Assembly (NCBI GenBank): GCA_017632935.1
Contig: JAGBQJ010000013.1
Coordinates: 5,970 to 69,969 of the forward strand
Source of the DNA: Bacteroidales bacterium
Lineage (GTDB): Bacteria > Bacteroidota > Bacteroidia > Bacteroidales > F082
Direction: 5' to 3'
DNA: 64,000 nucleotides
The notes below the pieces were generated by a model that ran no database searches, was not told the origin of the DNA, and worked only from the letters and a program-made list of their open reading frames with translations. Position 1 is the first letter of the stretch, and each line of letters opens with the position of its first letter. Of the stretch, positions 13,467 through 37,230 are shown piece by piece. The position numbers were made by a program, and so were the translations under genes.

Positions 13467-13539
13467 GCTTCCGTAGCTCAGTTGGTAGAGCACCTGACTC
13501 TTAATCAGGGTGTCCAGGGTTCGACCCCCTGCGGGAGTA
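13467..13539 (+). tRNA. tRNA-Lys (anticodon CTT)
   Basis: Hand-folded cloverleaf. Acceptor GCTTCCG/CGGGAGT (two G-U pairs); D arm GCTC-AGTTGGTA-GAGC; anticodon arm CCTGA-CTCTTAA-TCAGG; T arm CAGGG-TTCGACC-CCCTG; discriminator A. CCA is not encoded. Confidence 0.85.
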
Positions 13540-13546
13540 CTTCAAA
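13527..13546. repeat. attL: 20-bp direct repeat (tRNA 3' end plus 7 nt)
   Basis: CCCTGCGGGAGTACTTCAAA is identical to 37211-37230. Confidence 0.75.
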
Positions 13547-13588: not shown

Positions 13589-13764
13589 ATATCTATTTCT
13601 GGCGTGTTTTTGGCGTGATAGCACAAAAAAACACCCTGAAACGGCTTGCTTCAGGGTGCAGTTGCAATTCAATTTCCTATGTGGAAATCTGTTGCAAAGG
13701 TAACACTTTTTCAGATACTTACAACTATACTCCCATTCTTTTTTTGAGTACGGTGTCTGACTGG

Positions 13765-14125: not shown

Positions 14126-14812
14126 TTACGCCTTGTTGATTTTGCGACCGACCTTTTCGGCTCTTGTCTTGATGATGAACGAGCCGAAGCCACGGAGATA
14201 GACATTCTCTCCCTTGGCGGCATAAGTCAAGTAGAAGCGAACGGCATCGCCGACTTCTGCCCAACTGCCAACAGGAACGGACACACCCATAGACGGGTCG
14301 GTTTCTTCGGTGTTGAAGATGCCGATTTTTTTCTGGGTGAGGTTGTAGGCCACGACGATGAAGTTGGCTTCGGCTGGCTTGTCGATCTGCTCTGCTGCGG
14401 CAGGCTCAGCGTAGAAGTCCTTCACATCGTTGGTGAGAGTGACCACGCTTTCGAGCATAGGTGATTCGATGCGCTCACCGCTGCCGATGCCTTCCATCAG
14501 GGAGAGGTCAACCGTCTTGACATCATCCACAATGGCGGCGGCAGCTGCCAATTGATGGACAAGCATGTTGCGACGGGTTCTGCCACTGGTGACGGATGGA
14601 TAGAGCGAGGCAAGCTGCTCAGTGGTCAACTGCCCAGCAAGCCCCTGAATCTCTCTGAAGTAGTTGCGCTGCGCCATCTGTGCAGCGGTCTTGGGGTCTT
14701 TCTGCGATTGTGGAAGGCCTTTCATGTAGGCGATGCCATTCCACGAGGCACCAATAACGGTACCAACTTTTCCCTTGAATCCGCCTAAGATTCCTTGCTT
14801 TATTTTGCCCAT
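14126..14812 (-). CDS. Hypothetical protein, paralog 3 of a tandem triplet (family not recognised with certainty)
   Basis: 228 aa. The N-terminus MGKIKQGILGGFKGKVGTVIGASWNGIAYMKGLPQSQK is shared with the two upstream genes. Confidence 0.7.
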   Translation of the reverse strand: MGKIKQGILGGFKGKVGTVIGASWNGIAYMKGLPQSQKDPKTAAQMAQRNYFREIQGLAGQLTTEQLASLYPSVTSGRTRRNMLVHQLAAAAAIVDDVKTVDLSLMEGIGSGERIESPMLESVVTLTNDVKDFYAEPAAAEQIDKPAEANFIVVAYNLTQKKIGIFNTEETDPSMGVSVPVGSWAEVGDAVRFYLTYAAKGENVYLRGFGSFIIKTRAEKVGRKINKA

Positions 14813-14836
14813 GGTTATAGTGTATTTAGGTTAGTA

Positions 14837-15595
14837 TTACGGTTGCTTATTTTGTATAGTTGGTAGGGACTTGGTAGGGAGCGGGTCAGTACCTGATTCG
14901 GGTTGTTTTTCCACTCCCATGTCCTTTTTCTTTTTGAGTGGCCGAGCGGGTCGATTGATGACACCCAAGGTGCCAAATCCGACCTTTGAGCGGTTTTGAC
15001 TGGTGACAAACATGAATCCTGAGAACTCGTCGCGGGGATTGCCGTAAGGCTTCACATTGACTTCGAAGGATTGTTTGCCAGTGCTTTTCAGCGTCACTGG
15101 AGAAGCGATGAGAAACAGCTTCTGCTGCGTGATGTTGGCAACCAAGATGACAGGATAGTCGTCTGGGTGCTGGTCGCGGTAGTAGGTCACGGCCTCCCAA
15201 GAGATTTGGAGGTCGGAACGATTGGCATTGACCGAGACCGCCGGAAGGTCGGTCGTCGGGGAATTGCCGAGAGTGGTCAGGTTGTCGAGGTCGACGGTTC
15301 TGGTCTTGTCGATGACAGCCGCATAGGAAGCCAATTGCTGAACGAGCAGATTCCTGCGAGTCATGCCCTTGGGCTTCTTTGGGTAGATGAATTCCAAATC
15401 CTCGTTGGAGAGGGACATCGAGAGAGAGACCAACTCTTTGAAATAGCCTTGCTGCATCTTCTGGTTGCCTGACCTGCTCTTCTTGTAGGACTGAGGCAAA
15501 CCTTTCATATAGAAGATGCCATTCCAACAGGAGCCGACCACAGTGCCGACTTTGCCACTAAATCCACCGAGGATGCCTTGTTTTATTTTGCCCAT
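14837..15595 (-). CDS. Hypothetical protein, paralog 2 of the tandem triplet (with an extra basic C-terminal tail)
   Basis: 252 aa. N-terminus MGKIKQGILGGFSGKVGTVVGSCWNGIFYMKGLPQSYK. The C-terminal ~40 aa are K/P-rich. Confidence 0.7.
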   Translation of the reverse strand: MGKIKQGILGGFSGKVGTVVGSCWNGIFYMKGLPQSYKKSRSGNQKMQQGYFKELVSLSMSLSNEDLEFIYPKKPKGMTRRNLLVQQLASYAAVIDKTRTVDLDNLTTLGNSPTTDLPAVSVNANRSDLQISWEAVTYYRDQHPDDYPVILVANITQQKLFLIASPVTLKSTGKQSFEVNVKPYGNPRDEFSGFMFVTSQNRSKVGFGTLGVINRPARPLKKKKDMGVEKQPESGTDPLPTKSLPTIQNKQP

Positions 15596-15670
15596 TGTGT
15601 TTCGATTTTGGTGTTTTCAAAAAAAAGCCGCCCGACTGGACGGCTTTTCAACATTCGACCCGATAAGCGA

Positions 15671-16342
15671 TTAGTCGCGCTTCTTGGGTTTGGCAGGACG
15701 CTTGGTGACGGCCATCGTGCCAAAACCAACGAGAGCAATCTTGGAGCCAGTGGCGAGCATGAAGCCGCTGAAAGTGTCTTCGGCTTCGCCGTAGGCGGCC
15801 AGACCGACATTGAACGACTGGGAACCAGTCGTGCCGATGGTGGCGGTGGAAGGCACCAGATAGACTTTCTTCTTGGTGACGTTGGCCACGAAGATGACGG
15901 GGTACTCCTCGCCGTGCTCAGCACGGAAGGCGTTGGCACCCTCCCAAGAAATGGTCAGGTTTTCGCCAGCAGCGGCGATGGTAACCTCTGGCAGGTCATC
16001 CGTCGGCGCGTTGCCGAGGGAGTTGATGTTGCCCAAGTCGACGCTCTTGGTGTCGCCATCGACGGTGGCGACAGCGGTGAGTTGCTTGACGAGGACGTTG
16101 TGACGGGTCATGCCGCTGATAGCCTCAGGGAACAAGAATTTCATCTGTTCGTCCGAGAACTGGGCGGCGATGTCCAGAACTTCCCTGAAGAAGCCGCGTT
16201 GCTTGGTCTGTGCTGCGGTCTTCGGGTTCTTGTGGGACTGGGCGAGGCCACGCATGTAGCTGATGCCGTTCCACGATGCACCGATGACGGTGCCAACCTT
16301 ACCTCTGAATCCTCCGAGGATTCCTTGCTTAATCTTTCCCAT
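15671..16342 (-). CDS. Hypothetical protein, paralog 1 of the tandem triplet
   Basis: 223 aa. N-terminus MGKIKQGILGGFRGKVGTVIGASWNGISYMRGLAQSHK. Confidence 0.7.
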   Translation of the reverse strand: MGKIKQGILGGFRGKVGTVIGASWNGISYMRGLAQSHKNPKTAAQTKQRGFFREVLDIAAQFSDEQMKFLFPEAISGMTRHNVLVKQLTAVATVDGDTKSVDLGNINSLGNAPTDDLPEVTIAAAGENLTISWEGANAFRAEHGEEYPVIFVANVTKKKVYLVPSTATIGTTGSQSFNVGLAAYGEAEDTFSGFMLATGSKIALVGFGTMAVTKRPAKPKKRD

Positions 16343-16391
16343 TGTTCTTATCTTTTTAGGGGTTAGTAATTTTGGTTAGCTATCTTTTTCG

Positions 16392-16399
16392 CAAATGTA
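16392..16399 (-). promoter_or_regulatory. -7 box (TACATTTG) for the paralog operon
   Basis: The reverse complement of caaatgta matches TAnnTTTG, ~50 nt upstream of the ATG at 16342. Confidence 0.5.
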
Positions 16400-16559
16400 T
16401 AATCTTTTTATTTACAGTAGGTTATACTGGTATTGCTTGCATTCTTTTGCGCTGGTTTGCGTAGTTTGGAGTGAAAAAAGATATTACTACACTCAAAAGA
16501 AATGAGACGATTGCGCCTTTGGACAAAAACGAGGTGGTTAAAAAAGCAAGTTCCCTAAC

Positions 16560-17690
16560 GGCAAACGGAGACCCGCGTTAGAGGGGCGTAGTTTATTTAG
16601 GGGCTTGGCTTTTTTAAGCACCGTACCCATAGAATGAGACATTAAGCGTTTACGACAAACCACTTTTCCAAATTCAGGGTGGCGGTGGGGACGATGGTGG
16701 TACGGAGCGGAGCTTTGCGGAGCGACACTTTTCCGAATACTCTACTTAGGGTGGTAGGTGGGGTAAGTGGTGGCACTTAGGAGCGAAGCGACTGCCCTTC
16801 TTTCCAAATTGTCAAAATAGGGTGGTTGGAGGGGTACGAGGTGGTACAGGAGCGGAGTTTACGAAGCGACTGTGCTTTCCAAATGCTCAAATAAGGGTGG
16901 TAGGTGGGGTTTGATGGTGGTTGGCCAGAGCGGAGCTTTAGCGGAGCGACCTGACCTGAACTTTGGGGTGGTGGCCGGGGGTGACGGCGGCACGGATGTG
17001 CGTTGGCTCAGCAGGTAAGGGGGAAAAGCGCCTGCGGCTAAGGGGCGGTGACACTCACGCAAGAATGAGAAAACCGAGCCTAAACGACTATACGAGAGTG
17101 GGATACCCTGCGCCCCGTTCGCGCCAGCGCGGCCGACCCGCCCGACAGGAGTCCGCGCACGGTTTCAATCCGAAACGGCGGCGGGCGTGCCTTTTGCGGC
17201 GGCGACCCCGAAGAGGCAGGCACCAGTATGGTCATTGCGGGCTGAGGTGGCAACGATGAGGGGACGAAACAAGATGCGCTTTAGCGCACCACAAAGGGAA
17301 CCGCCGGGCGGACGCGCAAGCAGGGGCGCAAAACAAAAGGGGCGCGGCGACCCCCGCTAATAAGTTGCGAGGTACGAGAACCGCTTGGGGGTACGGGGGG
17401 CGACAAGAAAGCCCCGAGCGAGCAAGGAGCCACGAAAGCGGTTGGCCTTGGAGCCGCAAACGCTCGCTGGAGCCGCGCCAGTGGAGCGCAGCGGAACGAG
17501 TGTCGCGGGACAGCGAAGAGCAGCGGCGGTGTTGCGCAAGGGCGGCAACCTGAAAAAGCGCACGACGTAGGAGCTCAGCATTTTTTCAGATTGACGCTCG
17601 TTATACCCTTGCGCACACCAAGGCAACCGCAAGAAGCGGCGACGAAGGGAACACCGATTTCCCCCTCCTGCTGAATTAGGTAGGTTGAGC
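16560..17690. other. ORF-free, G-rich (plus strand) non-coding block A; candidate structured RNA or repeat region
   Basis: Only short Arg/Ala/Gly/Pro-rich ORFs occur in all six frames. It is clearly GC-richer than the flanking genes and has many local GC hairpins (e.g. GTTGCgcaagggcgGCAAC, GCGCtttaGCGC). Confidence 0.5.
16663..16950. repeat. Four degenerate tandem repeats of 64-80 nt, plus a decayed fifth up to ~17010
   Basis: Unit: CTTTCCAAAT-n-AGGGTGGTAGGTGGGG-n-GGTGG-n-GGAGCGGAGCTTTRCGGAGCGAC. Unit ends are at 16726, 16792, 16870 and 16950. Confidence 0.65.
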
Positions 17691-17759
17691 GTTGGGATGA
17701 TGTGTCGTTTTTTACGTTTGTTTCGTTCTATCGTCCTTACGTCATACGTGCTTTCGACA

Positions 17760-18725
17760 CTATTTCAACCATTTTCTGTACTTGATCCAGACACGGAGCC
17801 AGATGCGGGCGATAGAGTCGATGGCATCACCAAATATCATCTTGCTGTATTTGTCGAAGTTTTGACCCCACTCGGTCTGCTCCATGAACTCTTGCATGGG
17901 CTGGGTGTTTTGGAAGGTCTCAGGAATGAGGTAGTATGAAAACAAGTAGGAGTATTGCGAAACGGCACTCATGAAATCCCATGTGTTGTCGTTATCGCCT
18001 CCCCAACCATGGGTGTATTTGCGCGTGGCCACATCGTTCTCAACATCCAAAATGAAGGGTGTAGGTTTGAGTGGCAAGGGATAACCGTCTGGATCGTAGA
18101 AGAAGCGGTTGTTGTCCTTGTCAATCTTGTAGGACTTGTTGACCTGGTCTTCCCATTTCTTCTCGATGGCTCCGTGAATGCCTTTCTCATCGGAGAATGG
18201 ACGACTGTCGCAATGCAGCGGCATGTGACAGTCGGCTATGTAGTGACTGAGGATGAAGAAACGCATGGCGATGTGGTTTCCCGTGGTAGCGATTGGACAT
18301 CCTCTGTCCTCACGGTGCAGCATCTTGAAGTTGTCGACGATGCTGTGGGATATGGACTCACATCGGTCGGCGCAGTTGCCAGCAACGCATTTGTAGGGCT
18401 TGTTGTACAACGGTGACGATTTCCGCATCAATTCATAGATGCTGTGGGTGGTAGGTAGTTTGTCGAAGGTGGTATAAGGACCGTCTTCAGTGGGCTGGTA
18501 TTTGACGATGTGGCTGGTGGACATGTCCTTGAACACCTCATCAGGGTACCAGGCACCTTGTATGACGAAGTCACGGTAGTTCTTGAACCATCTGACAAGG
18601 GCTTTTGCTTCCTTGCGGACGTCTTCGCTGACACCTTTGACAACGGCTTCGTTGTCGGTGGTGGCGATGACTTCCAATCTTTTTATGGCCATAAAGGCTA
18701 TCCATGCGTGGGAGTATTTTTTCAT
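17760..18725 (-). CDS. S1/P1 nuclease-like / zinc-dependent phospholipase C superfamily protein (putative)
   Basis: The start is set at Met 18725 (MKKYSHAWIAF) because a promoter box and a terminator occupy 18747-18788. The motif LSHYIADCHMPLHCD resembles the H-x-x-x-D-x-H-x-P-L-H metal site of S1/P1 nucleases. Confidence 0.55.
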   Translation of the reverse strand: MKKYSHAWIAFMAIKRLEVIATTDNEAVVKGVSEDVRKEAKALVRWFKNYRDFVIQGAWYPDEVFKDMSTSHIVKYQPTEDGPYTTFDKLPTTHSIYELMRKSSPLYNKPYKCVAGNCADRCESISHSIVDNFKMLHREDRGCPIATTGNHIAMRFFILSHYIADCHMPLHCDSRPFSDEKGIHGAIEKKWEDQVNKSYKIDKDNNRFFYDPDGYPLPLKPTPFILDVENDVATRKYTHGWGGDNDNTWDFMSAVSQYSYLFSYYLIPETFQNTQPMQEFMEQTEWGQNFDKYSKMIFGDAIDSIARIWLRVWIKYRKWLK

Positions 18726-18746
18726 AGTGTTGGCGTTTTGAGGCTT

Positions 18747-18754
18747 CAAAGATA
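18747..18754 (-). promoter_or_regulatory. -7 box (TATCTTTG) for the S1/P1-like gene
   Basis: The reverse complement of caaagata, 22 nt upstream of the ATG at 18725. Confidence 0.5.
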
Positions 18755-18757
18755 GTG

Positions 18758-18788
18758 AAAAAAATAGATTGCGGGTCAAGCCCGCAAT
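18758..18788 (-). terminator. Rho-independent terminator on the minus strand at the low-coordinate end of GC-rich block B
   Basis: Minus strand: ATTGCGGG-CTTGA-CCCGCAAT, then CTA, then TTTTTTT. There is no T-run on the plus-strand side. Confidence 0.6.
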
Positions 18789-18839
18789 GAGGGTTAGGCA
18801 ATGAGAGCTTTCAAGTAAGTAGATGCTTTAAGATAGCAG

Positions 18840-19870
18840 TTGAGGCAGCCGCTGGCGGGGTTTTTGCTCATCATTAAGCCCAAGCTGTGGGTAAGGCGCG
18901 ACGGCCTTTCATAAAGCTTTCTTGCAGGCGAGCCGCCTACATGCCAGATGAGGCCGCACTGGGCATGTGTCGTTTTTCTTTTCGTTGGTTTTTCGTACTA
19001 ACGTGCTTTCGTTATTCGTACTAACGAGCTGACGAAGAAGTTGGGGCTGAAAACGACTCTTGCCCAGGGCGATATAGAAGTGGAGGCAGGCCGTCGCGCG
19101 GCAGCTGGGCGGTGTTGCCGACGAACAGAGTGGCACCCGCAGGAACGAGGACGGCCACCCTGAGCGGCGGCATTACCGCACAGCATTGGGGAGGCAAGGT
19201 TGAAGCTTCCTTCTGCAAAAACCGTGACAGCGGCGGCTTGGTCGGTTAAGGCTAAAAAGAGGACTTATAGGACTGATGGGGCTTATAGAGAAGTCGGTGC
19301 TCTCATACGGGGTGCGGCTGCTGGTATTGGCCGCGTAGGTGAGCGGAACAGGCGTTTTGTGGGTGAGAGACGGCGCGACCGACTACGGCACAACAAGCTT
19401 CTTTTTATGTGTGGCTTTCCAGCGATGGTGTGGCTGGTGCGGTTGGGCGACCTGACGACGGACTGTAGCGGAGCGAGCAGACAACGGCGGAGTTTACGGA
19501 GCCATTGTCTGCCCGTCGGAGCGGAAGGTAGTTGTCAGGGCGCGAAGGGTGGGACTCTCTCGATGAAGCTGAGGGAGCATCGTTTGCGAAGGTGAAAACG
19601 CCCGTGTAGCGACCGTAGCGGCGAATGGCAGCAGCTTAGGCTTGTGCGGCTGGTTGGGATGAACACGATGTGGAGCCACCTAAGCGATGCGAGCAGGCGC
19701 AGGGGAAGGCAATGCGGAGAGGCGTTAATGGAGCGTCGGAACACAGTGAGGAACGAACCGTGTTCCGACGCGGAATGGTAGCCCGTAGCACTGACGGCCA
19801 CAAGACAAACGCTTCGCTGGGGGCGGAACACCTTGACGGGGATGGGGTGGTGATGCTATATGATAATGGT
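18840..19870. other. ORF-free, G-rich non-coding block B; candidate structured RNA
   Basis: No credible ORF in any frame. It contains a copy of the block-A repeat unit (about 19395-19512) and several strong hairpins (GCAGACAA/TTGTCTGC at 19477-19512; CGGAACAC/GTGTTCCG near 19737-19770). Confidence 0.5.
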
Positions 19871-20257: not shown

Positions 20258-21568
20258 ATGTATATGAAAAGGCCATTTAGAATAAAAACAATAAAGAGAG
20301 CCAGAAAATGGATGAAACATCAATACGATGTGATAGCGGTGTTGGCCGTATCTTGTGTGGCTATTCTGTCTTCTTGCTCTGGTGATATAAATTCAAATTT
20401 TGATTCCCATTTTACCAATGATGGTTATTTAATACAGGATAGCACAAAACAGGATAATAAAGTACCCTTGACAAAAGCAAAGTTTTATGTTGAGGTCTCT
20501 GGAAGTATGAATGGCTTTTTTAGAGCTGGACAGCCGACAGATTTCAAAAAAGATGTTTGGCAAATACTCAGTTATTATTCACCTATTGCGCCTGGCGTGA
20601 CTATTTTGACAAATAATGGTGATGAAGGTAAAACTTATGATTTGAGTAATTTCCAGACTCAAATGAACACTGGTGCTTTTGTTTCGACCGCTTCAACGAG
20701 AGTACCTTTGATGCTTCAATCTATTATTGATAATTTGGATGCGGATAACGGGGAGGTTGCAGTACTTATTTCAGATATGAAATACAGTCCTGTTGGGCAA
20801 GCTGCGCCCAAGGTGCTGTTGACACAATACAGCACTGATGTCAGCAAGATCTTTGGACAGTACGGTAAAGCTATAAGTCTGGTTTGCGCCACATCTAATT
20901 ATCTGGACAAAAAAGGAAATTCCATTTGCGATGCTTCGCCATATTATTTTCTGATAATTGGCAACGACAGCGGTGTTGCAGAAATGCGTGATGGTATTTC
21001 CACCCTATTAACCAATGCTGGCAGGTTCGTTGACAACATTGAGAGCGGATTTAATTATGGCGGGATTAAGGAGAGTTTCGGTATTCCGAAAAAATGTTTC
21101 CAGATGGATATAAACGAGCCAACATTTGTTGAGTATGAAGAGGCTGATTCTTACGACACCTGCATCATCAATTTAAAAGTGGATTTGGCACCTTATCGTT
21201 GGATTCTGACCGATGAAAGCTATTTTGCAAGAGCTTTCAAGGCAAAAACCCTCTACGGAGCCAACCTTGTTGTAGATGACGTGAACATTGTAGTAAAAAA
21301 CATCACTGACAAGCAGTTGAAACGTACAGCAGAGGCCACGGTAAGACTAAAGCTGTTCAATATGCCCACAGATTCCGATGTCATTGAATGGACATTAGAG
21401 TTGCCTGACACGGATTACACTTTGTTTGGACAATTCTGTGGCGCGACTGCCGAAGAAGATGTTACCAAATCATATTCCATAGAAGATTTCCTTGTTGGTA
21501 TGTTCTACGGTGGTGTGGTAAATACAACGCTTAATCCCAATTACATTTTAGTTTCAAAAAATAGTTAG
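20258..21568 (+). CDS. vWA-like lipoprotein (operon gene 1)
   Basis: The alternative start at 20312 gives the lipoprotein signal MKHQYDVIAVLAVSCVAILSSC. KFYVEVSGSMNGFF is a degenerate MIDAS (E-x-S-x-S) and VAVLISDMKYS is a vWA beta-4-like strand. Confidence 0.6.
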   Translation: MYMKRPFRIKTIKRARKWMKHQYDVIAVLAVSCVAILSSCSGDINSNFDSHFTNDGYLIQDSTKQDNKVPLTKAKFYVEVSGSMNGFFRAGQPTDFKKDVWQILSYYSPIAPGVTILTNNGDEGKTYDLSNFQTQMNTGAFVSTASTRVPLMLQSIIDNLDADNGEVAVLISDMKYSPVGQAAPKVLLTQYSTDVSKIFGQYGKAISLVCATSNYLDKKGNSICDASPYYFLIIGNDSGVAEMRDGISTLLTNAGRFVDNIESGFNYGGIKESFGIPKKCFQMDINEPTFVEYEEADSYDTCIINLKVDLAPYRWILTDESYFARAFKAKTLYGANLVVDDVNIVVKNITDKQLKRTAEATVRLKLFNMPTDSDVIEWTLELPDTDYTLFGQFCGATAEEDVTKSYSIEDFLVGMFYGGVVNTTLNPNYILVSKNS

Positions 21569-21573
21569 TCGTT

Positions 21574-22017
21574 ATGAAATTACTGAAGCTGTATCAATGG
21601 ATCGCAGGAAAGTTGACCGAATTTTGCGCTCCATTCCAAAACAACGAGAGCTTGTATCAACAAGCCAGAGCCTTTTGGGGCAAGTTGGAAGGCATTTCAA
21701 CAATACTTTTAATCATCGCAGTGGTGATAGGTGTTTTGTTTGCCGTCATCTACTACAAGCCATACAACAACAAGCCAGGAAGACACTATACCCCCAAGTA
21801 TTGGGTTATTTTCCTGATTATAACATTTGTGGTGGCTTTTCTGTTGACATTGGGATTTGAATATATCTCAGTGGCACCACACTTAAAAGGCGCAATGTTG
21901 CTTGAAACTAAAATTGCACTTGGGAATGGAATCTATGCTTCAGCATTGTATTTCATTGTTTCGGTTTTGTGGTGCAACGCGCTACCGACTAACGCTTATC
22001 GATTGTTTGAATTCTAA
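21574..22017 (+). CDS. Small integral membrane protein, 3 TM (operon gene 2)
   Basis: Hydrophobic segments ISTILLIIAVVIGVLFAVIYY, YWVIFLIITFVVAFLLTLGF and IYASALYFIVSVLWCNAL. It starts 5 nt after gene 1. Confidence 0.65.
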   Translation: MKLLKLYQWIAGKLTEFCAPFQNNESLYQQARAFWGKLEGISTILLIIAVVIGVLFAVIYYKPYNNKPGRHYTPKYWVIFLIITFVVAFLLTLGFEYISVAPHLKGAMLLETKIALGNGIYASALYFIVSVLWCNALPTNAYRLFEF

Positions 22018-22029
22018 ACCCAACCCGAT

Positions 22030-23427
22030 ATGAAAAAAGTATTTGTTTTTTGCATTGGAGGTACTGGCATTCGCGTGATGAAGAGCATCACGATGCTGAT
22101 GGCAAGCGGAATGAGTACCAGCGGTTTTACCGTTGTCCCTGTTATCCTTGACCCGCACTTGGATTTAGAGGAAAAGAAGAATTTGCACTCGTTGATAGAA
22201 TCATACGAGGAAATATATCGACACTCAGTCAACAATGGGACATCAACGTTGAATTCTCTTGATGGCTTTTTCAATTCTGAAATGCTTACCATCGGAGAAC
22301 TCAATGAACAACTCAATGACACCCAACAAGCGGCTGGAAACACTGAAAAGTTCCGTTCATATATCAACGTGGCCAACCTTGGTGCAGATAATGTGAACAA
22401 CTATTTCGTACAGACGCTGTTTTCAAATAAGAATCTAAACAATCCTTTGTCGGTCGGCTTCAAGGGGAATCCCAATGTCGGTACCGTAGTGCTCGGTGAA
22501 ATGATTGAGGGAGCGGATTGGTTCAAAGCGTTTAAGACCAAATGCGAGAAAGACGACAGGGTATTTATTATTAGCTCCATCTTTGGAGGCACTGGGGCTT
22601 CAGGTTATCCGCTGCTGGAGAAAAAGATTAGAGGAGCTTCTGATAATCCAACAGTTAAAAATGCACTGATGGGAGCAGTGACTGTGTTGCCGTACTACGG
22701 GCTAAAAGATCCTACGACAACGGGCAGTGACATTGACTCGGCTAACTTCTACACTAAGACAAAAGCGGCTCTTGCCTATTACCAGAACACTGTGCAGTCG
22801 GATTATCTTTATTACGCAGGAGAAAAGACTTTGAGGCAGGTCTATGAGAATGACGAAAAGAAGCAAGAGGACACCGCTAACTTCATTGAACTGGTTGCCG
22901 CATCAGCCTTGTTTGATTTTCTAAAGAGAGAAAGACCGGACAGAAAACAATATATGACCAGGGCAATTGACGATGACGTGGAGTCATTAGACCTTGTGAC
23001 GATGGGCAGTGGCTATAAGGAAATCGTCAAGTGTGTTGCCGACTATATGATTTTGAGAACCTTTATTCAAAATCTTCCCAACGAGAAATACTTCCCTTTG
23101 AAGAAGAACAGAGGACTTGATGGAGGTTTTTACAAAGATGCAGCATTCCAATCATTGGTGCGCTTTACTGAGAAATACTATCAATGGTATTATGAACTTT
23201 CGACGAACAATCGTGCGTTTGCTCCATTGCACTACGACAGCATTAAGCAGATGGATGGATGGGTAAAAACCATCGACCTTGACGCAAAGGATGATTCATA
23301 CTATCTGCTCCGAATGATTGAGGCCAGCAATAGATACACAAAGAAGGATCATAGCAACAAATTCAGGTTCTTCCTGCAATTCGCCTATGAAGCAATAAAT
23401 GGTTACACACAGAAAATAATGAAATAA
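22030..23427 (+). CDS. Tubulin/FtsZ-superfamily-like GTPase (FtsZl-1-like, putative; operon gene 3)
   Basis: N-terminal T1-like loop VFVFCIGGTGIRV and T4-like signature SSIFGGTGASG (nt 22585-22605; compare the tubulin signature [SAG]GGTG[SA]G). No obvious FtsZ C-terminal domain. Confidence 0.55.
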   Translation: MKKVFVFCIGGTGIRVMKSITMLMASGMSTSGFTVVPVILDPHLDLEEKKNLHSLIESYEEIYRHSVNNGTSTLNSLDGFFNSEMLTIGELNEQLNDTQQAAGNTEKFRSYINVANLGADNVNNYFVQTLFSNKNLNNPLSVGFKGNPNVGTVVLGEMIEGADWFKAFKTKCEKDDRVFIISSIFGGTGASGYPLLEKKIRGASDNPTVKNALMGAVTVLPYYGLKDPTTTGSDIDSANFYTKTKAALAYYQNTVQSDYLYYAGEKTLRQVYENDEKKQEDTANFIELVAASALFDFLKRERPDRKQYMTRAIDDDVESLDLVTMGSGYKEIVKCVADYMILRTFIQNLPNEKYFPLKKNRGLDGGFYKDAAFQSLVRFTEKYYQWYYELSTNNRAFAPLHYDSIKQMDGWVKTIDLDAKDDSYYLLRMIEASNRYTKKDHSNKFRFFLQFAYEAINGYTQKIMK

Positions 23428-23430
23428 GAT

Positions 23431-26400
23431 ATGGCAAAAGTTGATTTAAATATTGTTGATAGAGGCACTAACAGTTCCGAATGGAAAGCAGAAGGAACGC
23501 CTTTGCAATCTGGCGACCTTGACAAAGTGCTTGAACAGAAGACCGACAATAGTGGTGCATTGAACTCGCTTCCCACACCTTTTGCCAGGTTTTTTGTCGC
23601 TCGCGAAGCTTTTAGAAGAGTCAATGAAGAGAAGCTGAATCCAAAGGAAGGGGCTGGCTTTGCCTATACGCAATTAGTTTCTGATATCCTTGATGTCTAT
23701 GAACTGTTGTTTAATCTGAAATACCACAAGAACAACACTTGGAAAGATGGTCAAAAGCTGGAGCTGAGAGAATGGAATAGAAAGGAGAATCTCGATTATC
23801 TCAAAGCGAAGATGCCTGTTCTATATAATTCTGTTGTAGATTACTACAAGACAGATATCCTCGAGGACAAACTGTATTTTCTCGTCTATACTGAGAATGG
23901 CAAAGAAGTGTTGTTGGCTTGCAGCTCCCCCATCACAGGCTTTGTCACACCGCCAGACATGGACAAGGCTGTTCTGAAGAAAGACAACACCGACACTATC
24001 TGTTTTACAGGTGAGCAATACCAAAACCTGCACATTAGGAGAAAATCAGGCGGGGAGTATTTCAGAGGTGATGTCAGACTGTTTGACAAGAGAGATGCTG
24101 AGTTTAAGAATTACATGTATTCAATGTTGTTTGGCACTGATACCGTTGACGAGAGATTTAAGGCCATCAAGGAATATGTGCGTAGTTTCAACAATGACCC
24201 AGAGATACGCAACGATTTTAGATTAAAGACAACTCCGGTGTTGACCGACCAGAATGACGGTTTGGTAATAAATGGGCTTTGCATACAGTCTTCAGATGAA
24301 ATTGATATCAACAGCTATTTCACTGACACCATGATTCGAGTACCTTATCGCATTTCGAGAGACACATTCAAATCGGTCGTTTATCAGAACGATGTTCAAG
24401 GTAGAAATTATGACTATTTGCTGCCTTTCAAGCCTGAAGTGATGAATCTGTTTGATGGAAAAGAACTTGACTCTGATGTACACATCAACAGAAATTCCGT
24501 AACGGTCACTTTACGCTATAATGGGAAGGAATACTCGAAAGAATACTCTCAAGACACCTTCCGTGCTGGTCAAGGTAGAATTGTTGACCTGCAAGGAGCG
24601 AAGATTAGCTTTGACCTTGGCATCTTCCCCAATATCCTATCCTATAAGGATGTCGAGAACAATTACTTCAAGGTGCTTGTGGTTGCAGCCGATGAAGATG
24701 CTGATGCCCCCAACTTCAATATCGACCAAATCAATCTTGCTTTTTTCAAGCAAGCTGAAAATGGTTGCAAGCAGATAAAAGAAGTTGTTCCTGAAGACAT
24801 GGCTGAATATGGCGTGGAGCCAGCAGCGGTACGTTCACGCCAAAAAACGGACGTAGAAGAAAGCGGCACCAAGTTCTATGAACTGTTTAACACGTCGTTT
24901 GACATGATTGAAATCAATGTCATGGGTGACACAGGTCTGTTGATGCCAGTATGGCAACACAGCCAAGCAAGCAATGAAACCTTTACCTATGCAATTGACC
25001 TTGGAACGTCCAATACATTTATGTCGCGTTGCAAGAATGACAGCCAAGGCAATCCGGACCTTAGCAGGAAGCCTGAACTCTTCAAGATGGATAAGACGAT
25101 GGTGAATTACATGCATGAGTATTCAGACGATACGCAGTATTCCATCACTCGACGCATAGAAGATTCGATTTTCAACAAGGCAAAAAAGAAAATCAAGACT
25201 GAATTTGTGCCAGCTGTCATCGATGGCAAGGACTATAGATTCCCCATCCGCACTGCTTTGTGTGGTATTCACAATAAGACCAAGAAGCCGAAATTGTTTG
25301 ACAACCACAACATCGCTTTCTTCTACGAGAAACTCATGGCGAACGACGACCAGGATGTGAACACCGACATCAAGTGGGAACAAGACGAGGACAAATTGCG
25401 CGTCTTTGTTAGAGAGCTGCTGCTCATCATCAAGTGCGATATTCTGCAAAGGAATGGCGACCTTGACAGAACCAATCTCGTTTGGTTCAGCCCATTGAGC
25501 TTTATGGGGAACACAAGAGAGGTTTATCAGAACATCTGGAACACTGAGCCAAAGAAAATACTGTTCATCCAGCCACAGCAAATCGTTCGCTATTCAGAAT
25601 CCGAGGCACCCTATTACTACTACAAGAAGATGGACTACATCAAGGATTCTGATGCCGTTACTGTCATCGATATTGGTGGTGGCTCGACTGATTTCGTGTA
25701 CTTCAAGGATAATGAGCCGCAAGTTGCCAATTCCGTCCATTTTGGATGCGATGTGCTCTGGGAAAATGGTTTCAATGCGTTTGCCAATGTTAGGGAGAAT
25801 GGTATATTCAAGAAATACGTTGACACTATTCGTTTCCAAAGGAAAGACCTTGAAGACTTGAATGAGTGCTTCAAGAATGTTGATTCCGTGAAGACCAAGG
25901 ATGTTATCAATTTCTGGCTTAGCAATGCCAAGGATTGTGACATCATCAAGTTCATGAGCCAGGACTTCAAACCCGTGTTTGCTTATCACTTAACAAGCAT
26001 CCTTTACTACATGGCCAATATGTACAAGGATAAAGGACTTGAAGCCCCGAGAACCGTGGTATTTAGCGGAAACGGCAGCAAGTACATCGACAATTTCATT
26101 TCGAGCGAAAGCAACATCCTGAAAGAAATTATTGATTTGATATTTGCGACAGTGTTTGGAGGAACGCATAATGTAAACATTAAGCTTCCTGATGAACGCA
26201 AGGAGTCGACCTGTTATGGTGGTTTGTATCGTGACAAGAACGCTCCGATAGTTAAAGATGTCGTTTACCAAGGCGATGTAACAAAGAGCTACGAAAAGGT
26301 GGGCGACATGAATAGCAACTTAGATTCGTTGAAATCTGTGCTGATGACCAAGTATAAGGATCTTGCTGCCTTATATAAGTCCGTCTTGGATTTGCTCAAA

Positions 26401-26592
26401 AAAGAGAAAATCATCGACGGGACTTCAGATACTCGTCGTTATGTCAGCAAGGCAGAGGAAGATATGGGTACACCATTCACTACCTACTACAAGACGCAAG
26501 TCAAGGAAAAGTATGGTGAAGAAGTTATCTATAACGATTCCGTGTTTTTCTTGCCCGTAATCAACAAGGTTTTTGAAATGACTAAAATCTAA
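23431..26592 (+). CDS. Large (1053 aa) protein with a C-terminal Hsp70/actin-like (ASKHA) ATPase domain (operon gene 4)
   Basis: Phosphate-1 motif YAIDLGTSNTF (nt 24991-), phosphate-2 motif VIDIGGGSTDFVYF (nt 25663-), adenosine motif VVFSGNGSKY (nt 26056-). The N-terminal ~500 aa were not recognised. Confidence 0.6.
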   Translation: MAKVDLNIVDRGTNSSEWKAEGTPLQSGDLDKVLEQKTDNSGALNSLPTPFARFFVAREAFRRVNEEKLNPKEGAGFAYTQLVSDILDVYELLFNLKYHKNNTWKDGQKLELREWNRKENLDYLKAKMPVLYNSVVDYYKTDILEDKLYFLVYTENGKEVLLACSSPITGFVTPPDMDKAVLKKDNTDTICFTGEQYQNLHIRRKSGGEYFRGDVRLFDKRDAEFKNYMYSMLFGTDTVDERFKAIKEYVRSFNNDPEIRNDFRLKTTPVLTDQNDGLVINGLCIQSSDEIDINSYFTDTMIRVPYRISRDTFKSVVYQNDVQGRNYDYLLPFKPEVMNLFDGKELDSDVHINRNSVTVTLRYNGKEYSKEYSQDTFRAGQGRIVDLQGAKISFDLGIFPNILSYKDVENNYFKVLVVAADEDADAPNFNIDQINLAFFKQAENGCKQIKEVVPEDMAEYGVEPAAVRSRQKTDVEESGTKFYELFNTSFDMIEINVMGDTGLLMPVWQHSQASNETFTYAIDLGTSNTFMSRCKNDSQGNPDLSRKPELFKMDKTMVNYMHEYSDDTQYSITRRIEDSIFNKAKKKIKTEFVPAVIDGKDYRFPIRTALCGIHNKTKKPKLFDNHNIAFFYEKLMANDDQDVNTDIKWEQDEDKLRVFVRELLLIIKCDILQRNGDLDRTNLVWFSPLSFMGNTREVYQNIWNTEPKKILFIQPQQIVRYSESEAPYYYYKKMDYIKDSDAVTVIDIGGGSTDFVYFKDNEPQVANSVHFGCDVLWENGFNAFANVRENGIFKKYVDTIRFQRKDLEDLNECFKNVDSVKTKDVINFWLSNAKDCDIIKFMSQDFKPVFAYHLTSILYYMANMYKDKGLEAPRTVVFSGNGSKYIDNFISSESNILKEIIDLIFATVFGGTHNVNIKLPDERKESTCYGGLYRDKNAPIVKDVVYQGDVTKSYEKVGDMNSNLDSLKSVLMTKYKDLAALYKSVLDLLKKEKIIDGTSDTRRYVSKAEEDMGTPFTTYYKTQVKEKYGEEVIYNDSVFFLPVINKVFEMTKI

Positions 26593-26597
26593 AGGCT

Positions 26598-28208
26598 ATG
26601 CTTGTTATTTCATTTGTAGCGTTTGGCCTTTGCCTTTGCTTTCAACTAAAGTATTTTCTTGAAACAAGGAAGCAACGAGAGTTATACTATCATTTCTTCA
26701 AAAAGAAGCAGCCATACGATGTTAGTTTAACTGAAGTTAATACAGAAGTCTATACTCAGTTAGTGCAAGTAGGTGAAGAAGGTTCAGACTTAAATCAGCT
26801 TATTGAGGAGATTAACCACTATATTCTTAAAACCAAAGGCACTACTGATTTTGCTGTCATACAAAACAAGGTAGAGCGCAAGTTGAATATGCGGTATGAC
26901 CAATCTGTTGCTAAATTGTCGTTTCCAACCCATTTCGGTCTGATGGGAACCTTCCTGGGGGTTTTTATTGGAGTTTTAATGTTTATTATTGGCTTTGATA
27001 GTACAAATGGAATAACGGACAATTCAATAAAGAACTTGCTTGAGGGCGTTCTTGTCTCTATGCTAACCAGTTTATGCGGATTGGGTCTGACCACATGGAA
27101 TAATGCCAGGGCTGGAGAAGCGAGAAAGAAGATAGAAGAAGATAAGAATGAGTTCTATGATTTTGTACAGACAGAGTTGATGCCTTCGCTGGATGTTAGT
27201 ATGGTAGCTGCTATCAGTAAATTACATCAAACAGTTGACCGTTTTGAACCAGCATTTGACAGGGTTATCAATCGTTTCCAAACCACGTTTGACAATTGCA
27301 CAAAGGCATTTGGCGATAGCTTCGAAAAGAATGTTAGGGCTGTTGCTACTGCGGTAGATGTGATGGGTAAAAACATGGATAAAATCAATGAAAATATCGA
27401 CCTTCAAGAGAGACTCCTTGCTACATTTAAGAGTGGTGAGCTGGTGCAAGGACTTGACAGATACATTGAGGCATCCAACAACTTCGTCAGTATTACCCAA
27501 TCGCTCAATAAGTTTGAAGAGGCTCGCAGGATGATGTTGGCGGCCACGCAAGAGGCCATCAATCTTCAGAACGCATATAGTGACTCGTTGCAGGTTCCTC
27601 GTGAAGTTGCCGTGCGCATCAATCAGATACTGGATAGAATTAAAGACTTCGAGGAGAATATAAATCGCATCGGAGGTCAACTTGAAAGAAGGGATATACT
27701 TGGCAATGATGTTGTGAACAAATTACAGGAACAAATCAGTGGCATATCGAAAAAGGGCAAGATTGCGGACAAGTATTTGGAAATAGCTGATGGCCGGTTG
27801 GAGGATTTATACGCTCAACAAACCAAGGTAATAAACGAGATGAACAGGCGATATAGAGAAGCACTTGAAGGACACATAGACGGCTTTGAGAAGATGATTG
27901 TGCATCAAACCGAGGAGCTTGAAAAGCGTCATGGTGACTTTATGAAGGCCATTGAAGAGCGGCTGACCATTGAAGATGTGCGCCAAGAATTTGTGAATTT
28001 GGGCAAACTGAAGGACATTGATGGAAAGATGGCCGAAGTTTCAAAGCGTGTTCCTACTTCTGACGAAATACAAAAGGCTGTTCAAAAAGCCATGCAAGAT
28101 GCAGTTCAACCAATTCAGAAGGAATTGGATGAAATGAAGAAAGACTTTAGAAAGCAAATGGAAGAATCCAAATCTGGCGTTTTCGGAGGCCTGTTTGGTA
28201 GGCGTTGA
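26598..28208 (+). CDS. MotA/ExbB/ZorA-like membrane protein with a long C-terminal coiled-coil tail (operon gene 5)
   Basis: TM1 is at the N-terminus. A MotA-type TM pair follows: FPTHFGLMGTFLGVFIGVLMFIIG and LLEGVLVSMLTSLCGLGLTTWNNA. The remaining ~360 aa are E/K/L/Q-rich and heptad-like. Confidence 0.65.
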   Translation: MLVISFVAFGLCLCFQLKYFLETRKQRELYYHFFKKKQPYDVSLTEVNTEVYTQLVQVGEEGSDLNQLIEEINHYILKTKGTTDFAVIQNKVERKLNMRYDQSVAKLSFPTHFGLMGTFLGVFIGVLMFIIGFDSTNGITDNSIKNLLEGVLVSMLTSLCGLGLTTWNNARAGEARKKIEEDKNEFYDFVQTELMPSLDVSMVAAISKLHQTVDRFEPAFDRVINRFQTTFDNCTKAFGDSFEKNVRAVATAVDVMGKNMDKINENIDLQERLLATFKSGELVQGLDRYIEASNNFVSITQSLNKFEEARRMMLAATQEAINLQNAYSDSLQVPREVAVRINQILDRIKDFEENINRIGGQLERRDILGNDVVNKLQEQISGISKKGKIADKYLEIADGRLEDLYAQQTKVINEMNRRYREALEGHIDGFEKMIVHQTEELEKRHGDFMKAIEERLTIEDVRQEFVNLGKLKDIDGKMAEVSKRVPTSDEIQKAVQKAMQDAVQPIQKELDEMKKDFRKQMEESKSGVFGGLFGRR

Positions 28209-28219
28209 TACTGAGCATT

Positions 28220-29041
28220 ATGGACGGAAACAATAATGGTTCGTTTTGGCCGAGTTACGTGGACGTTATGACAACGCTGTTTGCCATAATGCTCGTGTTG
28301 TTTGCCGTGTCTTTCAGTCGATTCAAAATCAAAGAGAAAGAATTGACAGAAAAAGTCGAAGAGCTTAGAGATACGGAAACAAGGCTTCAGGAGATTGTGG
28401 ATGAATACGACGATATTCTGAAGATTTATTCCACTGTTGGAAAAATCGACGCGACAGACTATTTCGGCTACAACAAGCCCTATCTGAAACATTTGTTCCA
28501 GATAAATGTGGAGTATCAGACGAAGGAATATGCCATCAATAAGCTGAAGCTTGATTTGACTGATGTAAACGCGGCCAACAAAAAAAGAGATAGCATCGTT
28601 GCCGCTGGTGAGTTGATAAAAAACACCATTCTTGAATTGAATAGTAGCGTTCCTGATACTATAGAGAATAACATCAAATTCCTCGTTATCATCGAGGGTC
28701 AATCTTCAAGGATTCCTTTCAACGAAGGGCCATGGAGAAACAATTACACCCTCTCCTATCTAAGGGCACAATACCTGAATGCGTTTTGGAAAGAACATGG
28801 CATTGATTTGAATAGCATTCCGAGATGTGAACTTATTATTTCTGGTAGTGGCGAGGAAGGTGTACCGAGAGAAGTGCCAGATAAAACAAGGCTCACTCAA
28901 TTATTCCCCAATAGCGTCGATTACCAAAAGCAATGGCATAAGATAGAAGAAAGGAATCAGCGTTTCTTAATAAACATCGTGCCAGTGTTGGGTAATATCG
29001 ACAGCACAAGAGAAAAGATTGAAAAGATAAAAGGCAAGTAG
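28220..29041 (+). CDS. MotB/ZorB-like protein with an OmpA-like peptidoglycan-binding domain (operon gene 6)
   Basis: FWPSYVDVMTTLFAIMLVLFAVS contains the conserved plug/TM Asp (nt 28262-28264). C-terminal FLVIIEGQSS...NNYTLSYLRAQYL is OmpA-like. A TTG at 28205 is an alternative start. Confidence 0.7.
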   Translation: MDGNNNGSFWPSYVDVMTTLFAIMLVLFAVSFSRFKIKEKELTEKVEELRDTETRLQEIVDEYDDILKIYSTVGKIDATDYFGYNKPYLKHLFQINVEYQTKEYAINKLKLDLTDVNAANKKRDSIVAAGELIKNTILELNSSVPDTIENNIKFLVIIEGQSSRIPFNEGPWRNNYTLSYLRAQYLNAFWKEHGIDLNSIPRCELIISGSGEEGVPREVPDKTRLTQLFPNSVDYQKQWHKIEERNQRFLINIVPVLGNIDSTREKIEKIKGK

Positions 29042-29042
29042 A

Positions 29043-30206
29043 ATGGGTGCGTTATGGTCTGAAGATTACGAAAAGGTGTTTGGCAAGCCAACAAAGTGGT
29101 CGCTTTTTTCGGAGGACGAAGAGGCGTATGAGGCTTTCCGTAAGACCATCATAAACTCACCTCATTACGTGTACGATAAGGATAAGCTGCCTTTTACAGG
29201 TGTGAAAGTCTATGGTTACGATTTGTATTTATTGAAGCTTACTATCGACCAGAAAAAAGCAGAGGGCAAGAAACTGTTTTATATCAAGGACGAAACACCT
29301 GGTTTAGCCAAGGTTCTTGCATTTGGCTATTTTAACAAAAACAGTCAATTGTTTTATTTGCTTGCCAACAGCTTGATAAGAAAGACGGATTTCCAACAAA
29401 AGATGAAGAAGGATTCGTCTCTTTATTGGCCAGTCTACAGGTTGCAAGCTAAAAGCGAGATAAGAAAATGCGATGCCGATACGAAGGATGAACAAGGCCG
29501 AGCCTTGCAATTAGAGTTGTTTCAACCAGAAGGCTATCGCATGATTGAGGACGTGGATTGTTCCGCATCCTTAGCTGCAGCTTATGCGCTTGGTCAGGAA
29601 GCTGATTTTACGAAGTGGAAAGGGATGGATGGCAAGACACTCGCGGAAACATATCCCTTTTATAGCGGAAGCTATTCTGAGCTTATTGATATAAAAACTA
29701 CTTGGAGCAAACTTCGTTCTCTGAAGGAAAAGCCCACACCGATTGTTGAAGAAAATGGCACAGACAAGCTATCGTTGTTTAATAAGATCATCACTCCTCT
29801 TATTCAGCACAAAGAGAAAGCAGCAGCCAAAAAAGTTGCACATAAGCGCAAGGAGTTGACCGAAATACAATGCTTTTTGATAGACGAAGGGCAAAGTGAA
29901 AAGTACAGCGCAAGGGGATGCTATTATGTGAAAGAAGAAACCATCAAAGTTTTTGCTGGTGCGGTGTTATCCACCGATGTTTCGTCTACGCTTAGGTATT
30001 CACTTGCGGACTACCAACGTAGATCTTTCATCAAGGAGCATTGCTCAACTAAGAAGTCAAAATATACACTGAAAGAAGATTATTACTTTGATTCGGCAGA
30101 CACTGCTGCACTTTATGTGATGGGACAGATTGTCGAAGGATTATCGGTGTGGATGACAATTGATGGCAAATCATTGGAGGAAAGAATCAATGAAGAAGTA
30201 TATTAG
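29043..30206 (+). CDS. Hypothetical protein with two DUF4357-like motifs (operon gene 7)
   Basis: Internal duplication: DCSASLAAAYALGQEADFTKWKGMDGKTLAE and FDSADTAALYVMGQIVEGLSVWMTIDGKSLEE. These resemble the SPSxAAxxxxGxxxNGxxxWKxxxGKxL tail of DUF4357. It starts 1 nt after gene 6. Confidence 0.5.
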   Translation: MGALWSEDYEKVFGKPTKWSLFSEDEEAYEAFRKTIINSPHYVYDKDKLPFTGVKVYGYDLYLLKLTIDQKKAEGKKLFYIKDETPGLAKVLAFGYFNKNSQLFYLLANSLIRKTDFQQKMKKDSSLYWPVYRLQAKSEIRKCDADTKDEQGRALQLELFQPEGYRMIEDVDCSASLAAAYALGQEADFTKWKGMDGKTLAETYPFYSGSYSELIDIKTTWSKLRSLKEKPTPIVEENGTDKLSLFNKIITPLIQHKEKAAAKKVAHKRKELTEIQCFLIDEGQSEKYSARGCYYVKEETIKVFAGAVLSTDVSSTLRYSLADYQRRSFIKEHCSTKKSKYTLKEDYYFDSADTAALYVMGQIVEGLSVWMTIDGKSLEERINEEVY

Positions 30207-37006: not shown

Positions 37007-37210
37007 AGTGTTTGAAATTGAATTGCTCTGCAAAGATACAACAATTCTTTCAGACGTGCAAGTTTTTGGCGTGATTTTGGCGTGATAATTGAATACAAGA
37101 GATTAAAATTGATTTCGATTGATAAATGATAATCGGATAAAAGTTTGAGTATCAATTTAATAATGAAACGATAATAGCACGCCAAAATCAAAAATACTCA
37201 TTCTTCTATT

Positions 37211-37230
37211 CCCTGCGGGAGTACTTCAAA
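37211..37230. repeat. attR: second copy of the 20-bp direct repeat
   Basis: CCCTGCGGGAGTACTTCAAA is identical to 13527-13546 and lies ~180 nt from the integrase start. Confidence 0.75.

Follow-up and report, generated by a model that had tools for sequence, protein, structure and literature searches.

A candidate large structured non-coding RNA element in a mobile genomic island of rumen Bacteroidales

Few classes of large (>500 nt) structured bacterial RNAs are known, with ROOL, GOLLD and OLE as examples (PMC12286853). ROOL and GOLLD are large, ornate RNAs that are often found in prophages near tRNA genes (PMC5737381, PMC12286853). Here, we describe a gene-free block, termed block A, in a stretch of 64,000 nt from a Bacteroidales bacterium (contig JAGBQJ010000013.1; hereafter the window). 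It is best read as the non-coding backbone of a mobile genomic island, made up of a terminator-like hairpin, a tandem array of variable copy number and a GC-rich domain of about 750 nt, core A. The domain, and not the repeats, is its main feature, and we consider it reasonably probable that block A represents a new large structured non-coding RNA element of the island. ROOL, GOLLD and OLE have each drawn considerable follow-up, and we know of no large structured RNA class from mobile elements of Bacteroidales.

Core A has in common with ROOL and GOLLD that it is a conserved, multi-helix non-coding element of 600-800 nt, that it is carried by a mobile element with a tRNA gene as its integration site and that it comes from rumen data. 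It differs from both in that neither covariance model matches it, even at E<=10, that its host phylum is another one and that it comes with a tandem array before it, further structured modules and genes for DUF6266 proteins; in addition, the strand assigned to it here is tentative. Core A appears to be akin to ROOL and GOLLD in kind, and not in sequence or model score.

Conservation and folding of core A

The gene-free stretch spans window positions 16343-17759 and lies between two minus-strand genes, a 321-aa gene with weak similarity to S1/P1 nucleases and the first of three DUF6266 paralogs. A first-pass annotation of this DNA had described block A as devoid of credible open reading frames (ORFs), GC-richer than the neighbouring genes and unlike any RNA family, and all three statements were borne out. 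The longest ORF within 16540-17760 has 98 aa, and a Pfam search with all ORF fragments of block A gave nothing at E<=0.1. The GC content is 0.65-0.67 at 16950-17550, compared with 0.39-0.60 in the neighbours, about 0.50 in the host flanks and about 0.40 in the island cargo; the GC skew contains no origin-like switch. No family of Rfam 15, including ROOL, GOLLD, HEARO, OLE, raiA, group II intron, RNase P, tmRNA and 6S, reached its gathering score in block A; the only match in the window was a tRNA, and at E<=10 block A yielded chance-level matches of 16-26 bits. BLASTN of block A against plasmid and phage collections found nothing, and exact-motif scans of IMG/VR returned merely two chance matches, both in coding DNA.

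Core A (16966-17712) consists of a 5' G-box (16966-16993), a closed domain of 658 nt (17007-17664) and a G/T-rich tail ending in YTGKGCGKTGGG. The first-pass annotation had called this part of the block dense in GC hairpins and had left it otherwise undescribed; it actually holds the strongest evidence, a 750-nt domain whose terminal helix occurs in two versions. Using nhmmer, the core was found in 67 rumen Bacteroidales and Prevotella loci at 78-99% identity, compared with 55-78% at four-fold sites of the adjacent gene, and its conservation thus extends beyond this strain. From 80 genomic loci retrieved via the S1/P1-like protein, only the 11 closest, all of them rumen Bacteroidales metagenome-assembled genomes (MAGs), contain block A; a metagenome scan with an invariant 18-mer gave 120 stretches, 50 of which contain the element, and loci retrieved independently via DUF6266 homologs (L202-L209) hold it as well. 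In the 69 S1/P1-like loci that are more distant, nhmmer found no core, and we therefore link the element to a narrow island family rather than to the S1/P1-like gene. Elsewhere in the window, including the structured region termed block B, no second copy of the core was found.

In the 11 closest loci, segment 16966-17700 is 88-96% identical to the window, whereas the four-fold sites of the adjacent gene are 55-74% identical, the exception being L004, where both values are 77%. This contrast indicates strong constraint on the non-coding segment. Among the 36-39 unique full-length core sequences, pairwise identity goes down to 77.5% and the majority of columns is invariant. Variable columns fall into the three codon phases in near-equal numbers (88/96/87, p=0.76), that is, without 3-nt periodicity, 199 of 224 pairwise indels have a length that is not divisible by three, and stop-free stretches are not conserved between homologs. 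Core A is under strong purifying selection and carries no coding signal. Its 3' boundary lies at about 17712, beyond which the sequences diverge into whichever cassette comes next.

RNAalifold predicted 157 base pairs on 36 unique core sequences, and 99.3% of the cells across these pairs are paired. Double-changed cells number 137, where shuffles give 49 ± 5 (0/500) and slid controls 1-16, so that compensatory substitutions, as expected for a structured RNA, exceed both kinds of control. They are centred on the terminal helix P0, a long hairpin at 17528-17619 and two short hairpins at 17123-17137 and 17160-17172. P0, which had been missed by the first alignment, is the strongest single structural result. 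Its 5' strand (17007-17015, CUCAGCAGG) pairs with 17657-17664 (CCUGCUGA), and the helix occurs in two unrelated but complementary versions, CAGCAGG/CCUGCUG and AAAAAACCGA/UCGGUUUUUU, whose halves are concordant in 32 of 39 sequences (Fisher p=6.9e-5). The duplex energy of P0 is -11.7 with its own partner and -9.1 ± 0.7 with permuted partners (0/1000). Because P0 closes the core, the latter forms a closed domain of 658 nt, with the 5' G-box and the G/T-rich 3' tail lying outside. A second helix, P1, is predicted by RNAalifold to stack on P0 by pairing of 17019-17026 (GGGGGAAA) with 17648-17655 (UUUCCCCC); as it is invariant, it is beyond covariation testing.

The long hairpin at 17528-17619, with an outer stem formed by 17528-17542 and 17606-17619 and an inner stem formed by 17543-17561 and 17578-17596, has the best covariation of the core, with seven pairs showing double changes (for example CG:16/AU:12/GC:8 and UA:13/GC:12/AU:11). 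The 6-bp hairpin at 17123-17137 reads GUCGGC[CGC]GCUGGC on the minus strand, with two G.U pairs that correspond to two A.C mismatches on the plus strand, and pairs of the types CG:25/GC:11 and GU:29/GC:6 are present in it. In the hairpin CGG-UUUCAAU-CCG at 17160-17172, a double compensatory swap to GCG...CGC is seen: at pairs 248-260 and 249-259, 30 sequences have CG/GC and six have GC/CG. The terminal helix and several internal helices of core A are upheld by compensatory substitutions, and the proposal of the first-pass annotation that the block is selected to fold as a single strand is supported by these changes and by the two versions of P0.

Natural variants of the core were also observed. 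A deletion variant (L188:1865-2277) keeps model positions 31-165, 278-490 and 641-701 and could help define dispensable sub-domains. In L092 (1740-2477), a 36-nt insertion between the G-box and P0 (alignment columns 29-66) forms a GC-rich hairpin of its own, CCCCUC...GAGGGGG, which indicates that this interval tolerates an extra stem. Numerous public contigs stop inside the array or the core or come to an end a few hundred bases or less from the S1/P1-like gene (L001, L003-L005, L007, L017-L020, L028, L029, L042, L204, L207, L208 and others); such ends would be expected if the modules are shared between strains or repeated and break short-read assemblies.

With regard to the functional strand of the core, the indicators give a slight lean, not far from even, towards the C-rich minus strand, which is co-directional with the flanking genes. 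In the core helices that are predicted on both strands and backed by covariation, A.C exceptions, equivalent to G.U pairs on the minus strand, account for 103 cells at five positions, compared with three cells at two positions for G.U pairs on the plus strand. Folding z-scores are -5.24 for the minus and -0.96 for the plus strand in the window and -8.07 and -3.95, respectively, in L096, and RNAalifold on the 36 sequences gives 17 double-changed pairs and -194.8 kcal/mol for the minus strand and 13 pairs and -191.1 kcal/mol for the plus strand. The hairpin at 17123-17137 likewise favours the minus strand. The unit arms of the array, which use G.U pairs on the plus strand, and module B1, which folds 22 kcal/mol better on it, favour the plus strand, and unpaired positions are A-rich on the plus strand. 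An initial plus-strand call, made from G.U counts on a plus-strand prediction, was circular and was withdrawn upon strand-neutral counting.

The tandem array and accompanying modules

In nearly all loci with enough 5' flank, a search with a hidden Markov model of the four window units finds one to eight array units directly before the core, with eight copies in L004 and five in L002. The array is an integral yet copy-number-variable part of the element. In the window it covers 16665-16957 and is composed of four contiguous units of 65-82 nt (16665-16729, 16730-16800, 16801-16875 and 16876-16957), which are 70-77% alike. Each unit combines a TTTCCRAAT box and a G-box (GGGTGGTAGGTGGGG..GGTGG) with a GGAGCGGAGYTTDCGRAGCGA segment of 13-23 nt that is flanked by short arms; there is no self-complementarity within the purine-rich stretch of 21-23 nt. 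The units, boxes and arms listed in the first-pass annotation are all present where it had placed them, and its count of four clear units stands. What it listed as an additional "decayed" unit (16960-16993) proved to be the conserved G-box at the start of the core. As the units are contiguous, lack spacers and are neither near-identical nor within the 23-50 nt of CRISPR repeats, the array does not have the make-up of a CRISPR (clustered regularly interspaced short palindromic repeats) array.

The arms around the GGAGCGGAGC loop differ between copies, as had been noted, and pair as GGCA (16772) with TGCC (16793), as ACAG (16846) with CTGT (16870), extendable to GUACAG/CUGUGC with one G.U pair, and as GGCCAG (16923) with CTGACC (16951), with one C.A mismatch. 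The further copy reported in block B is also there, with arms GCAGACAA (19477-19484) and TTGTCTGC (19505-19512), for which L092 contains a fully compensated variant, CUGACGA/UCGUCAG. Among 53 unique units from many loci, three arm classes can be distinguished, GUACAG/CUGUGC, GGCCAG/CUGGCC (with the variants CUGGUC, CUGGUU, CUGACC and UGUCAG) and a weak GGUG/CACC. In the same 53 units, arm duplexes have a mean energy of -4.10 kcal/mol with their own partner, compared with -3.43 ± 0.21 kcal/mol for permuted partners (0/500 permutations). The covariation of the arms, from which the first-pass annotation had deduced a selected hairpin, is real but weak, with three arm classes and few independent events, and the array as a whole folds like shuffled sequence (see below). 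The suggested capability of the units to form G-quadruplexes proved marginal: no canonical G-quadruplex (four G3+ tracts, loops of 1-7 nt) was found on either strand of 16560-17720, and two-tetrad patterns alone occur, one per G-box. This potential would also lose its relevance if function resides in the C-rich strand, to which the evidence from the core points.

Upstream of the array lies a conserved inverted-repeat module of about 150 nt, pre150 (16503-16650), which is kept in 24 loci. It forms a long hairpin with a stem of about 25 bp (arms 16533-16558 and 16597-16622) and an inner hairpin with a variable loop, and its consensus fold shows next to no variation. On each side, pre150 has GAATGAGAC direct repeats. 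With an A6 and a U6 tract at opposite sides of the long hairpin, pre150 resembles a bidirectional terminator, and it could be a terminator or insulator or a small RNA.

Two further structured modules, B1 and B2, make up block B. B1 (about 18780-19290) is an element of about 400 nt with a 23-bp closing stem (18845-18867 and 19215-19237). It is present in one to three copies per locus, always co-oriented with core A and between cargo cassettes. Thirteen of its pairs (113 cells) are double-changed, compared with 14-28 cells in slid controls, and its exceptions are close to balance, with 56 G.U and 44 A.C. In B2 (about 19300-19860), the hairpin formed by the arms mentioned above encloses a GGCGGAGUUUACGGAGC loop of the kind seen in the array units. 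Besides the window, this make-up of block B is seen in L092, L096, L113, L155, L164, L192 and L198, and in some loci B1 follows the core directly, without an intervening S1/P1-like gene. T-rich stretches with repeated CGTACTAACG-like motifs are located after the core (17690-17760) and within B1 (18960-19035, including a 23-nt direct repeat at 18985-19030), and their length differs between loci. On the minus strand at 18740-18790, just upstream of the S1/P1-like start codon, a hairpin with a T-run (TTGCGGGCTTGACCCGCAATCTATTTTTTT) is followed by a TATCTTTG box; the Bacteroidetes -7 consensus is TAnnTTTG. The hairpin and T-run imply that minus-strand transcription through B1 would end here.

Island context and rival explanations

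The element resides in an integrative island of 23.7 kb (13527-37230), which is delimited by a 20-bp direct repeat, CCCTGCGGGAGTACTTCAAA, at 13527-13546 and 37211-37230; the left repeat is the 3' end of tRNA-Lys(CTT). The integrase gene (35597-37033, minus strand) codes for a generic tyrosine recombinase, and TTTTTGGCGTGAT repeats near the island ends (13600-13620 and 37062-37087) resemble the arm sites of an integrase. The island also encodes an AAA_25 primase/helicase-like protein, a DUF6371 protein and, at 14126-16342 on the minus strand, three tandem DUF6266 paralogs identified by Pfam. For the 321-aa cassette gene (17760-18722, minus strand), Pfam shows weak similarity to S1/P1 nuclease and phospholipase C, with an E of 0.0047 that misses the family cut-off; a profile search against the PDB gave no sequence match, so the S1/P1-like label is weak, and homologs of the protein are widespread. 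PHROGs and PADLOC returned nothing for DUF6266 or the S1/P1-like protein. The cargo of the island includes an 8-gene operon at 20258-31047 that is likely to be a Zorya-type anti-phage system supplemented by extra genes; among its products are ZorA- and ZorB-like proteins (26598-29041), a DUF4357/PDC-S14-like protein and a non-specific endonuclease.

The first-pass annotation had raised the question which of the neighbouring genes accompany homologs of the block. DUF6266 clusters do so: of 37 informative loci, 32 have such a cluster upstream of the array, and no other protein neighbour of array and core is as constant. The gene after the core is the S1/P1-like one in 20 of the 37, and the 8-gene operon follows in three of 14 sister loci. 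The linkage of the core to the array and the DUF6266 genes is constant. In sister loci the non-coding modules are constant and the cargo varies, with examples including AbiC-like, AAA_15/DUF3696 and ImpB-like proteins, SNase with an M15 peptidase and a thioredoxin lipoprotein. In L206-L209 (a Prevotella sp. MAG and metagenomes), the DUF6266 cluster, array and core lie beside a different, 500-aa integrase at another chromosomal site, so that the RNA/DUF6266 module is common to island families with different integration modules.

The C-terminal tail of the DUF6266 proteins, GFG..RPAxPKK, resembles the beta-arm of HU, and a DUF6266 profile gives a weak match to the beta-arm region of HU chains (E=0.0016), as does Pfam, which suggests that these proteins might bind nucleic acids. 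We speculate that the core domain is transcribed and forms a ribonucleoprotein (RNP) with the DUF6266 proteins of the island via their HU-arm-like tail. The tandem units would provide repeated copies of a protein-binding box and hairpin before the large domain, and their number (1-8) would tune the amount of protein recruited. We put this RNP or scaffold mechanism forward as a tentative proposal, clearly less probable than the structured element itself. More doubtful still is the idea that the co-oriented folded modules, that is, the unit array, the 658-nt domain, B1 and B2, delimit exchangeable defence cassettes, perhaps bound by DUF6266, and thereby form a previously undescribed system. If true, such a system would be integron-like in outcome but not in its parts, or a large RNA-protein assembly from a mobile element.

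Several observations weigh against a structured RNA element and its proposed protein partner. P0 is broken in seven of the 39 sequences, which look like recombinants or chimeric assemblies, and most of the remaining core helices are invariant and thus uninformative either way. As all sequences come from one narrow clade and one habitat, the covarying cells reflect few independent events. Folding of the whole array is no better than that of shuffles (z of -0.68 and +1.33 for the two strands). The strand indicators conflict, with the core pointing to the minus strand and the unit arms and B1 to the plus strand, and no Bacteroidetes-type promoter was found beside the core on either strand. HU-like tails bind RNA no more readily than DNA, and the predicted structure of DUF6266 (predicted local distance difference test score of 66.5) gave weak, uninformative Fn3/Ig-like matches in Foldseek searches against the PDB and BFVD.

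The explanation that survives best beside a structured RNA is an element acting at the level of DNA, which we regard as rather unlikely. Here, the units would be iteron- or centromere-like sites bound by the HU-arm-like DUF6266 proteins, and the GC-rich blocks would act as single-stranded DNA, either in replication or transfer of the excised island, as sso/oriT-like sites or an R-loop origin, or as recombination scaffolds that delimit cassettes. The integrase, the AAA_25 primase/helicase-like protein and the DUF6371 protein encoded on the island fit this explanation, as do the HU-like DNA-binding motif of DUF6266 and an array that varies in copy number without a folding signal. Iterons and centromeres such as sopC of the F plasmid, the repeats of which are 43 bp long, are likewise tandem repeats of tens of bp in variable number beside genes for nucleic-acid-binding proteins. 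In contrast to such sites, the arms here vary between units of one array, the array abuts a covarying folded domain with which it has a G-box in common, no ParA/TubZ partner is encoded in the backbone, and the modules are 14 kb away from the replication genes. The location of the modules exactly at cassette boundaries is also in agreement with a DNA-level role and recalls integrons with attC sites such as the Vibrio VCRs, as the B1 modules part variable cassettes with some defence genes and single-strand folding is implied. However, the modules measure 400-750 nt compared with 57-141 nt for attC, the cassettes are multi-gene and in both orientations, and no IntI-type integrase is found beside the array, the generic tyrosine recombinase being 16-18 kb away. 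The near balance of G.U and A.C exceptions in B1 (56 and 44) is what strand-neutral selection would produce, whereas the one-sided exceptions of the core (103 compared with three) argue for one folded strand, and a closed multi-helix domain of 658 nt far exceeds known sso, oriT and attC sites.

The modules might alternatively be cis-acting parts of mRNAs, such as long structured untranslated regions or insulators between cistrons, in the form of terminators, RNase barriers or, on the minus strand, a C-rich stretch for Rho loading, that protect the cargo operons and keep them apart from one another and from that of DUF6266. Read on the minus strand, the core starts 35-48 nt past the S1/P1-like stop codon without a terminator between them, the array is C-rich and unstructured, and the bidirectional-terminator-like hairpin comes after the array; a putative minus-strand terminator followed by a TAnnTTTG box, read off the DNA, would separate B1 from the S1/P1-like start. 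Nevertheless, about 600 nt of near-invariance and a closed terminal helix go far beyond what insulation needs, and the neighbours vary by locus and strand while the modules are constant, making this explanation unlikely in our view.

It is highly improbable that the tandem units themselves are the active part, as small RNA modules processed into a protein sponge or an inhibitor of the type III antitoxin kind, possibly directed at a neighbouring nuclease cassette. As in CsrB/RsmZ, the units have repeated hairpin loops with GGA motifs, one to four per unit within GGAGCGGAGC..CGGAGC, a resemblance that presupposes transcription of the G-rich strand; with a functional minus strand, the loops would read CUCC and not GGA. 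Unlike CsrB/RsmZ, the units also hold a long G-box, and their stems are weak. With ToxI-type arrays they have in common tandem short structured repeats of variable copy number in mobile or defence loci, and nuclease-like cassettes are close by (S1/P1-like in the window, SNase in L206-L209). However, the units are 65-82 nt long compared with 34-45 nt in ToxI, the folding signal is weak, the array folding like shuffles, and the array is followed by a non-coding core and not by a same-strand toxin gene; its neighbours, including the nuclease cassettes, are on the opposite strand or optional, unlike in a ToxIN-like type III toxin-antitoxin system. Finally, a degraded protein-coding gene or a gene with a variant genetic code can practically be dismissed, as, despite one minus-strand frame with merely four stops in 407 codons and stop-free runs of up to 237 aa in some homologs, no frame is conserved (which is also why an alternative stop-codon reading was rejected), indels are mostly 1-2 nt, neither periodicity nor a Pfam match is present, and all codon positions are equally conserved while the silent sites of the adjacent gene diverge.

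Implications for the island family

A literature search produced no relevant work on DUF6266 or DUF6371, nor on large RNAs of Bacteroidales or of defence islands, and DUF6266 would be a candidate protein partner family without a literature of its own. The structured RNA element that we favour offers a usable alignment, a closed domain, a copy-number-variable repeat and a position amid swappable anti-phage cassettes. Should they also act as markers of cassette boundaries, the modules could account for the exchange of defence genes among islands in rumen and gut Bacteroidales, and could serve as search handles for new cargo.

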